A DNA stretch of 64,000 nucleotides from a virus. Location: the IMG/VR virus record IMGVR_UViG_3300024983_000146. One strand, written 5' to 3'. A program made the position numbers and the translations under genes. Within the stretch, counting starts at the first letter, position 1. The number at the start of each line of letters is the position of its first letter. Under the pieces are notes generated by a model. The model made no database searches. It was not told where the DNA came from and was given only the letters and a program-made list of their open reading frames with translations. Of the stretch, positions 24,018-38,715 are shown piece after piece.

Positions 24018-24746
24018 TTATTCCTTAACCAGGTTGCTCAATGTGCCCATTAATTCAGATAAAGCCTTTACAGATAATTTCATGTTTTTGGCAATTTCGT
24101 CAGCGCTTGTGCTATGACCACCTCCAAGTCCTAGCCCCGTTTTTCCATTAATTTCAAGAATTGTTGACCTAAAATCTGGTGTTGTGGGAGAAAAGCGGTG
24201 TGCGAATTTGTTCCTATATCTGCTTGCAACAAAAATTTTCTGTTGAAAATCTTTTAAAACTTCTACAACTTTGCCATCATCAATTAAACTAAAAAGCCTT
24301 CGGCCGAAGCTAACATGATCCTCCGGAATATTTAAATCAAAATAGGTATTTAAAAGCTGGGCCAGCTGATCTTGAGAAGAAATAAGAAAATAATAAAAAG
24401 TTTCAGCGTAATAATCGAATTTCCATCTATTTGCAAATTGACTTTCGCTCTGAGTTCGCTCGGAAGGGTCTGAAACTCCCCGATTGTAATTTGTAATAGC
24501 AATAACGAAAGATTCATGAACGAGACGATGCCTATTAGAAAGAAATTGACTCCAAAAATATAGGTTGCGAATTTTGTTGGCCTCTTGTAATGTGATGCTT
24601 TTAGATAATATTCCGGGAAGTACTTCACATTGAGTAAACTTTAAGCTCGGTATTTCTGGGTAATCTTTATAAATAGCTGCTCTCTCCTCCCTACTTGGGT
24701 AGGTATAAGCATCAGAATTAATTACTATAGTAGTACTTTTTGCCAT
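24018..24746 (-). CDS. HEPN-domain protein (Cthe_2314-like)
   Basis: RNKFAH (RxxxxH) motif and YYAETFYYFLISSQDQLAQLLN helix. Confidence 0.75.
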   Translation of the reverse strand: MAKSTTIVINSDAYTYPSREERAAIYKDYPEIPSLKFTQCEVLPGILSKSITLQEANKIRNLYFWSQFLSNRHRLVHESFVIAITNYNRGVSDPSERTQSESQFANRWKFDYYAETFYYFLISSQDQLAQLLNTYFDLNIPEDHVSFGRRLFSLIDDGKVVEVLKDFQQKIFVASRYRNKFAHRFSPTTPDFRSTILEINGKTGLGLGGGHSTSADEIAKNMKLSVKALSELMGTLSNLVKE

Positions 24747-24748
24747 AA

Positions 24749-25009
24749 CTAAGCCTTATTAGTGAACATTCCGCCCCTTCCGGTAAGCAGCCACTCTGCC
24801 GAAATTCCATAGTCATCAACCAAGTAAGTAAGCCACGCCACCTGAAATATATCTCGGCTGTGATCTTTCTCAAGCGTATTAAGGTTCCAACGATTGATTT
24901 TATACTTTTCAGTAAAGGTTTGCTTTCCCCGAATTACTTTGCCCACCTTCAGCATCTGCAGGGCTTCGAAGAATCTCCCAACTATTATTTGGCTTTCCGG
25001 ATTTTGCAT
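24749..25009 (-). CDS. Small HTH DNA-binding protein
   Basis: C-terminal YGISAEWLLTGRG, as in XRE-type HTH domains. Confidence 0.75.
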   Translation of the reverse strand: MQNPESQIIVGRFFEALQMLKVGKVIRGKQTFTEKYKINRWNLNTLEKDHSRDIFQVAWLTYLVDDYGISAEWLLTGRGGMFTNKA

Positions 25010-25012
25010 GAT

Positions 25013-26086
25013 TTATTGTTTTGGCTGGTTTTTCTGCATAAGAAATTCATATTCTTCGGCAGTAATCTTTTTGTCGTTTAGCAGCTTTTTATATCTGGAG
25101 CTGTTCCTCTTCAGCCTTGCTGCCTCAAGTTCCTCCTCAGACTTTTTTGTAGAGCCTGCTTTTCTCTCTGCAGCTGCGCGAAGTTTATATTTCTCATAGG
25201 CAATCTTAAATACGAGCTCCACATCTTCCATCAGGCCCTTGCACTGATAAAAATCGGTAATTTCAACATTTTGGATCTCCCTTGGAAAAGAGTAGTTGCA
25301 AAATCTGCTCTCAGCTACTGTCCTTGTTTTTGAAATATCGTAATTACAAATAGGGAAAGATCCAGAGCCATATTTCTCGGTTAGCACTTCTGAAATAATT
25401 TGCTCAAAGTTATCCCGGTTGTCCTTCATCGCTTTTCGTGAAAGGTAAAAGGATTTCCACATAATATCAGCCAGGTTCTGCGGCGTCAAGTCAAACTTTA
25501 AATTGTATGCAAGCAGGAATTGAGCGTTTGAGAAGCCCGATATTTCCGTTCTTTTGTTCAGGTCGAGAAGTAAGTCCAGCCTATCCTTTAATATGCATGA
25601 ATGAATTAGAGCGCTTTCTGAATAGCCTAAAAAAGACTTATTCTTATGGACATTCCTTAATCTAATTATCTGCTCAAAAGCTTTATCAAAATTGCCTATT
25701 AAAAGCTGTCTCTCGAGCCCATAGTAGTATAGAAATACATATCCAATATTTATTGGAGCGTCCACGTTTCTGAGCCAGTTAAGATATAAAAACCTTTGCC
25801 CCGGGGTTAAATCAATATAGCTTGGCCAATATGGAGGAGAAGGAATGTTAAAATCTTCGGAAATTGGAAGGTGAATATATATGGTACTGGGGTCGTTAAA
25901 GTTCTTGTCCTCCTCGGTACTCTCCAAGCGGCCGTTCCTAATGGTAAAAGATACGAATAAGCCTCTGGGCGATCTTGGAATATTCTCGTCATAAGAAATA
26001 TATAGCAGGTCTCTATTCTCAATTTCCTTAATTGTAGAAACCTCTCCACTCGGCTTCGCGCCAAAAATATTGTTTAAATGGCCCAT
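25013..26086 (-). CDS. TerB N-terminal domain-containing protein
   Basis: YWPSYIDLTPGQRFLYLNWL...IGYVFLYYYGLERQLL signature. Confidence 0.75.
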   Translation of the reverse strand: MGHLNNIFGAKPSGEVSTIKEIENRDLLYISYDENIPRSPRGLFVSFTIRNGRLESTEEDKNFNDPSTIYIHLPISEDFNIPSPPYWPSYIDLTPGQRFLYLNWLRNVDAPINIGYVFLYYYGLERQLLIGNFDKAFEQIIRLRNVHKNKSFLGYSESALIHSCILKDRLDLLLDLNKRTEISGFSNAQFLLAYNLKFDLTPQNLADIMWKSFYLSRKAMKDNRDNFEQIISEVLTEKYGSGSFPICNYDISKTRTVAESRFCNYSFPREIQNVEITDFYQCKGLMEDVELVFKIAYEKYKLRAAAERKAGSTKKSEEELEAARLKRNSSRYKKLLNDKKITAEEYEFLMQKNQPKQ

Positions 26087-26089
26087 TAC

Positions 26090-26545
26090 TTATTTCGCAG
26101 TTTTAAGCTTTGATATAATCTCGTTTAACTTACCAAGTCTCCCGAGGTACTCCTTATCAAGCGGGAAAACCTCTAGCGCTCTCCGGATGACTCTTAACTC
26201 CTTGTCGTATTCCTTGGCCTTCCTGTAAATGACCATAAGCCTCTTGAATGAGTGGTGGGCCGGATACCCGGCTGCGATATTCTTCTCATATTCGATAACG
26301 GCAAGGTCCGACTTCCCGTCTTTCTCGAGGGCAATACCTTTGTTGTTAAGGGCGCAGCAGTCGTATAGTGCCATCTCTTTTTCAAGTTGCTCTATTCTCA
26401 GGCGCTCCATTTCCTTCAGCTTCTCCTCCGGGATATCAATATACTCCCTTCCTTTTAGTGAGGCGAGTTCCATTTCAGAAAAAAGGTCTGCGTCAATTAT
26501 TGCTCCCTTTATATACTTCTCCAGGTATTCAATTTTAACTTTCAT
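26090..26545 (-). CDS. TPR-like protein
   Basis: NNKGIALEKDGKSDLAVIEYEK...RLMVIYRK helical repeats. Confidence 0.65.
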   Translation of the reverse strand: MKVKIEYLEKYIKGAIIDADLFSEMELASLKGREYIDIPEEKLKEMERLRIEQLEKEMALYDCCALNNKGIALEKDGKSDLAVIEYEKNIAAGYPAHHSFKRLMVIYRKAKEYDKELRVIRRALEVFPLDKEYLGRLGKLNEIISKLKTAK

Positions 26546-26546
26546 A

Positions 26547-27194
26547 CTACTTCAACGACATACAAAATAAAATTCGGTAGATACCATATACCTCTGATGT
26601 TGGAATATCAAACGGAGCATATTTCTTCTGATCGGGATTAATTGAAATACATCTTAGGTGCCCTTCCTTTTCAGGTGCAATTAGTCTTTTTACCACTATC
26701 CCGTTGGAAGTATCCACAACATAATCTCTTCCCCATTCAACAAAAATTTCTGCGTCAATCTTTTTGACTAATGCTCGGGACCCGTTTGGATATTCCGGGG
26801 CCATACTTTCCCCGGTGATAGTAATCGCAAACTCTGCGTCTTTAATCGGGGAGACAATCCTTTCGCAGTCTCCCTCTTTAACGGAGGCGATAAAGTCGTT
26901 TAGCTTACCGGCCTGAGCGGAAATGGGTAACAGGTATATGTAGTCTTTAGAGTTATCGGCTATTGAGCAGTTAGATTTTAAGAATTCCCCCTCGCCGGTT
27001 AAAATAAAGTTGAGGTTGAGCTCCGGAAAAGCTGCCACAATTTTATTTGCCATATCTCCGCTAATCGTTTTTGTTTTTCCATTCGCCACGTCGTAAAAGG
27101 CCTGGGGCCTATCATATCCACACTTCAGCGCCAGCTTAGCAAGAGAAATTGAATAGCTGTTGGCAATTTTCTGTAATATTTCTGCAGATGTCAT
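26547..27194 (-). CDS. CI/LexA-like repressor (HTH plus S24 autopeptidase)
   Basis: N-terminal HTH, AG cleavage site (SAQAGK), GESMAP serine, VVKR lysine; divergent from a cro-like gene. Confidence 0.9.
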   Translation of the reverse strand: MTSAEILQKIANSYSISLAKLALKCGYDRPQAFYDVANGKTKTISGDMANKIVAAFPELNLNFILTGEGEFLKSNCSIADNSKDYIYLLPISAQAGKLNDFIASVKEGDCERIVSPIKDAEFAITITGESMAPEYPNGSRALVKKIDAEIFVEWGRDYVVDTSNGIVVKRLIAPEKEGHLRCISINPDQKKYAPFDIPTSEVYGIYRILFCMSLK

Positions 27195-35709: not shown

Positions 35710-36111
35710 ATGGAAGCAACAGATACATTTAAAAACGCCATAAGGGCATACCTGGACAGCAGAGCAGTCAACGACGAGTTATTCGCGGCAACCTACGCAA
35801 AAGAGGGCAAGAACATAGACGATTGTGTCACCTACATACTGAACACCGTTCAAAAGAGTGGCTGCAATGGCTTTGCAGATGAAGAGATCTTCGGCATGGC
35901 CGTGCATTACTACGACGAAGACAAGATTGAGGTCGGCAAGCCTATCACCGGCAAAGTGGTAGTCAATCATTCTGTCGAGATCACGGAAGAAGACATTGCA
36001 ACTGCCAGGCAAAAGGCCCTTGACGAGCTGGTTGCCGAGCAAAAGAAGAAGATTGCAGCCAAGCCAAAAGCCACTGCCAAGCCTGAAGTACAACAAGCAA
36101 GCCTGTTTTAG
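35710..36111 (+). CDS. PcfK-like / AcrIIA9-family protein
   Basis: AYLDSRAVNDELFA...KNIDDCVTYILN...MAVHYYDED. Confidence 0.8.
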   Translation: MEATDTFKNAIRAYLDSRAVNDELFAATYAKEGKNIDDCVTYILNTVQKSGCNGFADEEIFGMAVHYYDEDKIEVGKPITGKVVVNHSVEITEEDIATARQKALDELVAEQKKKIAAKPKATAKPEVQQASLF

Positions 36112-36113
36112 TC

Positions 36114-37421
36114 ATGAAACCTAGAACAAAATCACAATTTGATGTTATGGCTCGGCACAAAGAGCTCCCATGGCTAACCCAGGTAATGATGGAATGGGCG
36201 AAAATGAATGTGATCGAGTACAAGGGTTTTGCAACTAAAAACAGAGTTGTTTGCCTGCAGTGTGGACAAAGCTTCTCACCGGAACTTGTAAGCCGCAAAA
36301 AGGCTGTTTGCCCTCATTGTTCAACCAAGATAAATGTTGAAGTATCGAGAAAGACAACCGATAAACAGACATATTACACTGCTTATGCGCAGATAGTCGG
36401 AGAATATCAGGTTATTCGATACTTTGTTCACTATTGTTATTTTAATGCAAAGCATGAGGCTAATATCAATTGCTGGGAGGTTACTCAACTGTGGATTAAA
36501 GAAAATGGCAAGTATGAGATAGTCAGTCTGAATCATTACCTGACTCCATATTGCGAAACATGGACCGGAGATTTTGAGATACGTACTGAAAATCGCGTGT
36601 ATTACAGCTATTACACAGGTCTTAAATACGATATCTACACAGAGGATTTTCATCCTAAATCACAGATCAAAGGTATTTATAAGAAGTATGGTATTAATAC
36701 AAAGTTAGCCGGACTTACATTTTTACAGGCAATAAAAGCTATTCCTAGTGCCCCAAGGCTTGAAACACTGTTAAAATGCAAGCAGTACAACCTGTTAAAC
36801 TTATTTACCAACCAAAGACTGACTGACAGATACTGGCCTGCAGTAAAGATCTGTATCAGGAACAAATACAAGGTCAAGGATTCAAAAATTTGGCTCGACT
36901 ATGTGGATCTGCTTTTATACTTCAACAAGGATATCCACAACGCGAAATATGTCTGCCCGGCTAACCTGAAGAAAGAGCATGACCGCCTTGTAAAGAAGAA
37001 AAGGGATATACAGCGCAAGCAAGCAGCCGAGCGTAAGCGTCAACAGGCCCAGGAATGGGAAACGCAATTTAAGGCCCTTAAAGGGCATCTGATAGGGATA
37101 GCCTTCCAGGAAGACAACCTCACAATAAAAACCCTTGACAGCGTTCAGGAGTACCTTGAGGAAGGCGATGCGCTGCATCACTGCATCTTCACAAACGAAT
37201 ACTTCCTCAAGAAAGAATCAATCTGCTTGTCGGCCCGGATGAAAGGGGAGCCGGTTGAGACAATTGAACTATCGCTGAAAGATATGAAGGTTGTTCAGTG
37301 CCATGGCAAGTTCAATCAACCCTCAAAGCACCATGACAAGATAATTGAGGCAGTAAATAAGAACGCCAGCATCTTCCGCAAGCTTAAGAGACGCGCCAAA
37401 CAACAACTTCAAACAGCCTAA
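36114..37421 (+). CDS. PcfJ-domain protein
   Basis: N-terminal Zn ribbon; WLDYVDLL...LKKEHD; EGDALHHCI...TIEL. Confidence 0.85.
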   Translation: MKPRTKSQFDVMARHKELPWLTQVMMEWAKMNVIEYKGFATKNRVVCLQCGQSFSPELVSRKKAVCPHCSTKINVEVSRKTTDKQTYYTAYAQIVGEYQVIRYFVHYCYFNAKHEANINCWEVTQLWIKENGKYEIVSLNHYLTPYCETWTGDFEIRTENRVYYSYYTGLKYDIYTEDFHPKSQIKGIYKKYGINTKLAGLTFLQAIKAIPSAPRLETLLKCKQYNLLNLFTNQRLTDRYWPAVKICIRNKYKVKDSKIWLDYVDLLLYFNKDIHNAKYVCPANLKKEHDRLVKKKRDIQRKQAAERKRQQAQEWETQFKALKGHLIGIAFQEDNLTIKTLDSVQEYLEEGDALHHCIFTNEYFLKKESICLSARMKGEPVETIELSLKDMKVVQCHGKFNQPSKHHDKIIEAVNKNASIFRKLKRRAKQQLQTA

Positions 37422-37893: not shown

Positions 37894-38715
37894 ATGAAAA
37901 AACAATCATTTAAAAAGCGCATCGAAACTCGAAAAAACGAGATAAGGCTTACCACCACGGAGCCAAAAGAAATGCTTGGAAAATTTCTTGCGAAGGATCT
38001 GCGCAGACACTGGAGCGAAAATTTCGTTGATGAAGGCTCCGGCGAAGTTGTATCGGTAGAAAGATACGAAACCATAGCAAGGGCCGGGGTGCTCGTGGAA
38101 GGCGATATTCTCTCAAGAATCATGTTCCACATGTCAGCTGGCGATATCAGTGAGGTGGAGGTGAGCAGCCAAAGGAGAGAGGCCATAAATATTCCATACA
38201 GCCATCTAGGACTATGGAAAATATCTGCAGATATAAAGGAGAAAAAGCACAAATTCCTTTTGTACGCCACCTCAATTGACCTGGCCATGGAAATAGCCAA
38301 GGATTACATTGAGCTAAACTATGTAGGCCCGTTTACAATCAACAGCGCCGGACAGTTTAATAACTGCATCCTTCTTACAGACAACATGACAAAGGTGAAA
38401 ATTGACCACGACTCAAATATTGATGATGTTGAGGAGGAGCCACACTATGAGAAGAAGTTCTACCAGATAACAGTCAATATTGTCACAGAGGAATACTCAA
38501 GGCAAAACACGTTCATTATCCACTCAAAGGATGTTGACTCAGCAATGATCATTATCAATGATTGGATTGCCGAAAGCGTTCAAGAGTGGCAAAAAGAAAA
38601 TGGCCGGCCAATTACAAACGACTTTAAAACAGCTATTGAGTCTGCCGTAGTAATACCGGTTTCGCGAATTATTGAAAGGGAGTTCTCGCTTGAGTATACT
38701 GAGAGGGAGGAATAA
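37894..38715 (+). CDS. Protein with an RpoB-insertion-like N-terminal domain
   Basis: WSENFVDEGSGEVVSVERYE resembles the recalled Bacteroidota RpoB [20 protein letters not shown]. Confidence 0.65.
   Translation: MKKQSFKKRIETRKNEIRLTTTEPKEMLGKFLAKDLRRHWSENFVDEGSGEVVSVERYETIARAGVLVEGDILSRIMFHMSAGDISEVEVSSQRREAINIPYSHLGLWKISADIKEKKHKFLLYATSIDLAMEIAKDYIELNYVGPFTINSAGQFNNCILLTDNMTKVKIDHDSNIDDVEEEPHYEKKFYQITVNIVTEEYSRQNTFIIHSKDVDSAMIIINDWIAESVQEWQKENGRPITNDFKTAIESAVVIPVSRIIEREFSLEYTEREE

Follow-up and report, generated by a model that had tools for sequence, protein, structure and literature searches.

The window analyzed here, a 64,000-nt stretch of viral DNA, contains two different phage-like regions: one at 1-23650 with a methyltransferase and tail genes, and another at 26500-64000 that is laid out as a complete temperate phage, its genes running from repressor through to tape measure. 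The gene of interest lies in the second of these, at 37894-38715 on the plus strand, where the original prediction had placed it; it is a real open reading frame of 273 residues. The annotated genes of the window mark the surrounding prophage as temperate and siphovirus-like. Its map begins with an S24 repressor (26547-27194, minus strand), after which come RecT, a PDDEXK protein, a helicase, a primosomal protein, a DnaC/IstB-like ATPase, PcfK and PcfJ; the gene for the 273-residue protein follows, then those for a MazG-like protein and a radical SAM protein, and downstream of the latter terminase, portal, capsid and tape measure. The PcfK-like and PcfJ-like genes occupy 35710-37421 (plus strand), within the phage replication module. 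Conjugative elements are the setting in which PcfK and PcfJ are best known, and both are found near the gene's family again in other phages (e.g., the related phage L004). The idea that these neighbors signal a conjugative element was nevertheless rejected, because phage structural genes (terminase, portal, capsid, tape measure) and the S24 repressor flank the gene and all contexts of its homologs are phage-like. Co-oriented with the repressor, at 24018-26545 (minus strand), are genes for a Cthe_2314-like HEPN protein, a TerB_N-domain protein and a TPR protein, which together look like a lysogen-expressed accessory or defence-like cassette.

The 273-residue protein matches phrog_35807 over its full length (E 7.1e-56; residues 7-272 on profile positions 4-279 of 283). 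PHROG 35807 is a phage family with no assigned function, and searches of Pfam (at E up to 1), NCBIfam and PADLOC placed the protein in no family. The name "RNA polymerase subunit sigma" that NCBI gives to some homologs was discarded: Pfam and NCBIfam searches for sigma domains detected no sigma-70 region 2 or 4, either in the 273-residue protein or in the sigma-named homolog P0008. The family is at present without annotation, or carries this wrong one. The features of the locus are as follows.

37894..38715, plus strand: phage early protein gene, 273 aa (P0001), member of PHROG 35807 (ORF list; phrog_35807 match).
37930..38187, plus strand: domain 1, residues 13-98, identified as a complete copy of the RpoB βi4 (SI1, BBM2-type) lobe insertion (profile, alignment, VIA).
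38026..38052, plus strand: hairpin tip, residues 45-53, V-D-E-G-S-G-E-V-V, a near match to the PcrA/UvrD motif (motif of PMC8318588; model).
38203..38379, plus strand: predicted domain 2, residues 104-162, β-β-α-β(β), first half of a DUF4494-like tandem (model, Foldseek BFVD, Atlas).
38383..38445, plus strand: acidic linker, residues 164-184, disordered, pLDDT <50, of variable length in the family, pI 4.4.
38449..38661, plus strand: predicted domain 3, residues 186-256, a second β-β-α-β unit weakly like domain 2 (hhalign, model).

βi4 (also SI1 or dispensable region 1) is a lineage-specific insertion of RpoB that is said, by Iyer et al. in 2004 and by Lane and Darst in 2010, to be built of BBM2 modules. 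It is located in the β2 lobe and composed of one to six such modules (PMC2939025, on the E. coli β2-βi4 structure). An alignment made by eye had previously paired residues ~25-80 of the phage protein with a Bacteroidota RpoB segment, and four independent computations bear this pairing out as statistically real. A phmmer search of all PDB chains finds residues 222-284 of 9n9p_C, the RNAP β subunit of Flagellimonas taeanensis (organism according to the preprint), at E 2.8e-5 with the full-length query and at E 3.7e-6 with residues 1-100 alone. A BLASTP comparison, which had been proposed as a check on the N-terminal segment, is also significant: 20 of 47 positions (43%) are identical between residues 15-61 and residues 224-270 of the genome's own RpoB (P0002, found with TIGR02013 and then translated), with a pairwise E of 2e-8. 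Searched against the PDB, a profile of 55 family members matches 9n9p_C (223-284) at E 5.3e-13 and Porphyromonas (P.) gingivalis RpoB 8dkc_C at E 1e-5, and reports no RpoB from outside the Bacteroidota at E up to 10. When the RpoB lobe is searched against the whole genome in six frames, rpoB and the 37894-38715 gene are the only matches.

The extent of this homology emerges from the alignment of domain 1 of the family with βi4 segments taken from rpoB of 30 genomes across the phylum. Domain 1 is colinear with the whole of class-Bacteroidia βi4, from first strand to last (~85 residues), with a 4-residue insertion in the helix as the sole indel, and it has W40, F44, R57 and E59 in common with class-Bacteroidia RpoB at positions where the other classes of the phylum differ. 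In a maximum-likelihood tree of 85 columns, which are so few that the exact position of the phage clade is uncertain, the 54 phage domains group as a single clade (SH-aLRT 100), which has a long stem (1.22 substitutions per site) and is nested within the RpoB segments of class Bacteroidia. One nested phage clade makes a single old capture from a class-Bacteroidia rpoB the simplest reading, and the tree points to it. What these comparisons identify is a descendant of the βi4 (SI1) of a class-Bacteroidia rpoB that now stands free at an N-terminus. Since it is not inserted in a β2 lobe and is accompanied by no other RpoB region, the protein is to be regarded as containing a homolog of the βi4 domain and not as an RNAP subunit. 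The original prediction spoke of a mimic of the RpoB insertion; its structural part holds, in a prophage, and "mimic" proves too weak a word, the segment being a homolog of complete βi4 instead of a loose likeness. That the resemblance to RpoB should be due to chance, or to convergence on a common small fold without common descent, is barely conceivable: BBM2-type β-β-α-β domains are small, and the same region of the structural model matches MoeA/gephyrin domains at Z 6-7, but the profile E value and the end-to-end colinear alignment with its one indel already effectively refute this reading, and lineage-specific residues in common, together with a top structural match that is the same RpoB segment, also argue against it.

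The AlphaFold2 model of the protein (mean pLDDT 78.9) has three domains. Domain 1 (residues 17-92 in the model) is composed of a strand, a β-hairpin, a helix and a strand; its fold is not one unrelated to the RpoB insertion, which would have spoken against the original prediction, but has the same RpoB segment as its best match. Foldseek against the PDB ranks Bacteroidota RpoB first (E 3.6e-4), and VIA-align superposes domain 1 best on 9n9q_F 217-311 (Z 7.6, rmsd 3.1, 80 aligned) and less extensively on the E. coli lobe (7egs_A 226-337; Z 5.5, rmsd 2.3, 56 aligned). Lobe insertions of the RNAP β subunits of tobacco PEP, cyanobacteria, E. coli and Xanthomonas also match. The modeled domain 1 is thus superposable on solved βi4, with Z values that are modest alone; it is the sequence evidence that carries the claim. 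Phage domain and RpoB βi4 are colinear in sequence and share a strand-hairpin-helix-strand topology as well as a D-E-x-T-G-E hairpin tip; they differ in that the phage domain is free and not set in the β lobe, has the 4-residue helix insertion and conserved phage-specific residues, and has a relaxed outward hairpin face.

The two strand-helix blocks that had been noticed after the RpoB-like segment are also real; they are the cores of two predicted β-β-α-β domains that are weakly alike. In the model, residues 105-161 and 188-254 each comprise a β-hairpin, a helix and one or more further strands, and hhalign relates domain 2 to domain 3 weakly (E 2.5e-4 over 19 columns). The proposal that the protein consists of three diverged BBM2 repeats was rejected because profile comparison of domain 1 with domain 2 (E 0.73) and with domain 3 (E 0.1) shows nothing; only domains 2 and 3 resemble each other. 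Structural matches of domain 2 are to LX/eL20, PurS and T7 Gp2 (Z 5-7), with domains 2 and 3 reaching Z of about 7 against the RNA-binding ribosomal proteins LX/eL20. For T7 Gp2 (2wnm_A against residues 103-159) the values are Z 5.0, rmsd 2.8 and 54 aligned, with unrelated folds scoring equally well or better, and for the ε subunit of B. subtilis RNAP Z is 4.5. These matches to LX/eL20, PurS, T7 Gp2 and ε, all at Z 4.5-7, are too low to carry meaning.

Another counterpart of domains 2 and 3 is DUF4494 (PF14902), a family of small conserved proteins with no assigned function that are found on Bacteroidales chromosomes and in phages, crAss-like ones among them. The predicted fold of residues 104-256 matches predicted structures of phage DUF4494 proteins (Foldseek BFVD E 1.6e-4 to 3.2e-4, probability 1.0), and TM values of the domain 2-domain 3 region against DUF4494 predictions (Foldseek/Atlas) are 0.6-0.78, with the Atlas matches at 0.71-0.78. 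Sequence profiles agree less firmly: hhalign of this region against a broad DUF4494 profile gives E 9.7e-5 with a probability of only 58% (84 columns, both repeats in register), and with small profiles E 0.08. Judged from the models, domains 2 and 3 appear to be a tandem with a DUF4494-like fold. The two kinds of protein nonetheless differ, in that the 273-residue protein has no Pfam match even at E 1 and has an acidic linker between its repeats, and DUF4494 proteins lack a βi4 domain. DUF4494 has no match among solved structures; neither the window's own genome nor any of 18 genomes from its genus was found to contain a member, and a literature search on it yielded nothing relevant. Chromosomal DUF4494 genes of Bacteroidales (at L010 and L126-L128) are 65-90% identical and adjoin a YggS-type (Ala_racemase_N) gene.

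The protein belongs to a large family, with 421 relatives in a word-indexed search and 254 clusters (at 50% identity) in an exhaustive search at E ≤1e-30; nearly all of the 150 clusters listed, out of these 254, have the three-domain layout. Members are ~245-315 aa long, come from temperate Bacteroidota phages, are abundant in human-gut and environmental Bacteroidota phages, and are encoded on at least 362 IMG/VR contigs; INPHARED, the collection of deposited phage genomes, has one partial match only. Mean pairwise identity among 138 representatives is 44% for domain 1 (49% for its hairpin), 33% for domain 2 and 25% for domain 3. By this measure conservation within the protein is highest in domain 1, which argues that this domain is not a decaying remnant. 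Longer fused forms of domain 1 were searched for and none was found, which is weak evidence. The family's genes are always located in the early replication/recombination module, in the company of RecT or AAA_24, DUF3127, NinG, helicases and PcfK/PcfJ, and no partner gene is conserved: among 15 dereplicated loci no neighbor cluster occurs in more than six, and the ORFs upstream of the family gene in three homolog contexts are unrelated to one another. One homolog, P0168 (354 aa), has a C-terminal extension that resembles, by eye, the DNA-binding winged helix of FtsK-gamma; this variant is represented by one cluster, on a contig of 2.4 kb. In L004 (4394-6361) the AAA_24 recombinase gene encodes 655 aa with Hint and LAGLIDADG matches, as compared with 311 aa in its siblings, and looks like a gene that carries an intein insertion.

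To our knowledge, the only experimentally known client of βi4 is, in other bacteria, the Tudor domain of the helicase PcrA/UvrD. This C-terminal domain binds the T-G-E hairpin tip of RpoB SI1 (PMC8318588), and in the crystal structure PDB 7egs the E. coli lobe is seen together with the C-terminal domain of UvrD. The helicase-interaction motif, [VIL]-D-x-x-T-G-E-[VIL]-[VILT], is carried by RpoB SI1, UvrB, YxaL and YwhK; in B. subtilis, replacing its Glu with Ala or Lys abolishes binding, and free UvrB, which also has this motif, is a competitor of RNAP for PcrA (PMC8318588). Overexpressing the free Tudor domain in B. subtilis led to UvrD-like phenotypes, namely UV sensitivity and accumulation of R-loops (PMC8318588). 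The host genome encodes an RpoB with the exact motif and a UvrD/PcrA ortholog whose linker is rich in G/P and whose C-terminus is Tudor-like. In the phage protein S replaces T, and the strict motif is absent. The strict motif occurs in 27 of 118 family representatives (23%); its Glu is kept in 92 of the 118 (78%) and replaced in the other 22%, which include an abundant human-gut clade with Lys. In the 55-sequence alignment D46 is present in 100%, and E47, T49, G50 and E51 in 80-87%. Some rpoB genes in other classes of the phylum (L037, L040-L042) specify a shortened βi4 in which most of the long hairpin stem is absent and the T-G-E tip is kept.

The model places the triad at an exposed hairpin tip, in a loop (46-51) between strands 36-45 and 52-62, with pLDDT 84-92. 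The phage protein is accordingly like the known motif proteins in presenting a T/S-G-E triad at such a tip, between hydrophobic flanks, and has inherited it directly from a motif-bearing RpoB element; it is unlike them in that its motif is inexact and its binding of a helicase is a prediction. Conservation can be apportioned along the domain. W40, F44, V53, I55 and I76 are conserved in RpoB as well as among the phage proteins, and most residues of this class are probably in the core; the outward hairpin positions V45, V52, S54 and N58 are near-invariant in RpoB and vary more within the phage family, so that some of the similarity may come from nothing more than an inherited fold. Conserved in the phage family only are K14, R18, T21, P24, M27, G65 and F78, as well as S-N-Q-x-R-x-A after the last strand. 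Structure prediction for a complex of residues 1-100 with the C-terminal domain (residues 730-799) of the host UvrD/PcrA (P0277), run without controls, gave a median score of 0.31 against a mark of 0.32 and speaks neither way.

The reading that we tentatively favor, while granting it somewhat less than an even chance, is that the protein acts on a client of βi4 as a decoy or adaptor. The original prediction had suggested a decoy for host factors or defence sensors, or docking onto the transcription machinery. Expressed together with the phage replication and recombination genes, it would present a βi4 surface in trans and compete with RNAP for a host factor that docks on βi4. UvrD/PcrA, captured via the hairpin tip, would be the first candidate, its Tudor domain being the known client and the host encoding such a helicase; on these grounds its capture is the most likely mechanism. 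The helicase might then be either drawn away from RNAP and UvrB or brought to phage DNA by the C-terminal domains. The data fit some other, Bacteroidota-specific client of βi4 equally well. The completeness of the homologous copy, its Bacteroidia-specific residues, the rank of domain 1 as the most conserved part of the protein and a tip resembling the published motif all suggest a decoy or adaptor; the scarcity of the strict motif (27/118), the loss of its Glu in 22% of representatives, the S for T in the protein at hand and the lack of a conserved partner gene argue against it. Strict mimicry, in particular, appears weakened by the relaxation of the outward hairpin residues in the phage family and by a key Glu that is not universal.

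The notion that domain 1 has been exapted as a scaffold, losing its RNAP role to become a structural or oligomerization module while the DUF4494-like (LX/eL20-like) tandem acts on phage DNA or RNA in replication or recombination, is rather unlikely in our estimation. The long stem of 1.22 substitutions per site that separates the phage clade from RpoB, the many positions conserved in the phage family only and the relaxation, relative to RpoB, of the exposed hairpin face would all be accounted for, as would the invariable replication/recombination context; the likeness of domains 2 and 3 to RNA-binding LX/eL20 (Z about 7) and the P0168 variant with its FtsK-gamma-like C-terminal segment (by eye) fit as well. 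However, it is the hairpin, and not the phage-specific parts, that is the most conserved stretch, and most members still carry the tip motif; an acidic protein (pI 5.2, charge -12) does not favor nucleic-acid binding, and the FtsK-gamma fusion is confined to that one cluster on its 2.4-kb contig.

Direct regulation of RNAP must be considered improbable. A protein that bound host RNAP via domains 2 and 3, or via a homotypic contact between its domain 1 and βi4, could redirect or inhibit host transcription early in the lytic cycle, much like T7 Gp2 and other small RNAP-binding phage proteins, as the early position of the gene and the derivation of one domain from RNAP itself might lead one to expect, and domain 2 has a weak fold likeness to T7 Gp2 (Z 5.0) and to B. 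subtilis ε (Z 4.5). But at Z 4.5-5 these likenesses fall short of what the alignment tool itself regards as meaningful, LX/eL20 and PurS match better, and neither a sigma nor an anti-sigma domain is detected with Pfam or NCBIfam. A free copy of βi4 also has no vacant docking site, because βi4 is an insertion that in E. coli packs on the lobe over a modest interface (PMC2939025): the native copy already sits there, and there is no obvious way for a free one to dock.

To return to the decoy or adaptor and press it to its fullest form: the captured βi4 would be a trans-acting bait for its docking factor, with the Tudor domain of UvrD/PcrA as prime candidate, and that factor would be either uncoupled from transcription or hijacked for replication. 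If the bait reading is true, Rosetta-stone logic applied to the fusion with a DUF4494-like module implies a partnership of DUF4494 with βi4, such that the chromosomal DUF4494 proteins of Bacteroidales would work with RNAP. So complete a scheme we regard as doubtful in its entirety. Whatever the client, a phage family has kept one RNAP insertion as a separate, strongly conserved domain, which provides a soluble bait of ~85 residues with which to look for the insertion's binding partner; were UvrD/PcrA to be the client, this would be the first demonstration that a phage protein exploits RNAP's helicase-interaction hairpin, and phage replication or recombination would be tied to the transcription-coupled helicase of the host.

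Both molecular mimicry and RNAP-targeting phage proteins are already known kinds; a captured RNAP insertion has no earlier report in the literature searched. Ocr is a DNA mimic. Like T7 Gp2, T4 Alc, Xp10 P7 and Ocr, the 273-residue protein is small, early and tied to the transcription machinery, and its domain 2 has a weak fold match to Gp2; unlike these four, which are not copies of RNAP domains, it carries a captured surface domain of the polymerase. Literature searches yielded no report of a phage protein copying an RNAP surface insertion, and nothing relevant on phage proteins with the helicase-interaction motif. The sequence insertions of Bacteroides RNAP are themselves listed as uncharacterised (PMC11685472).
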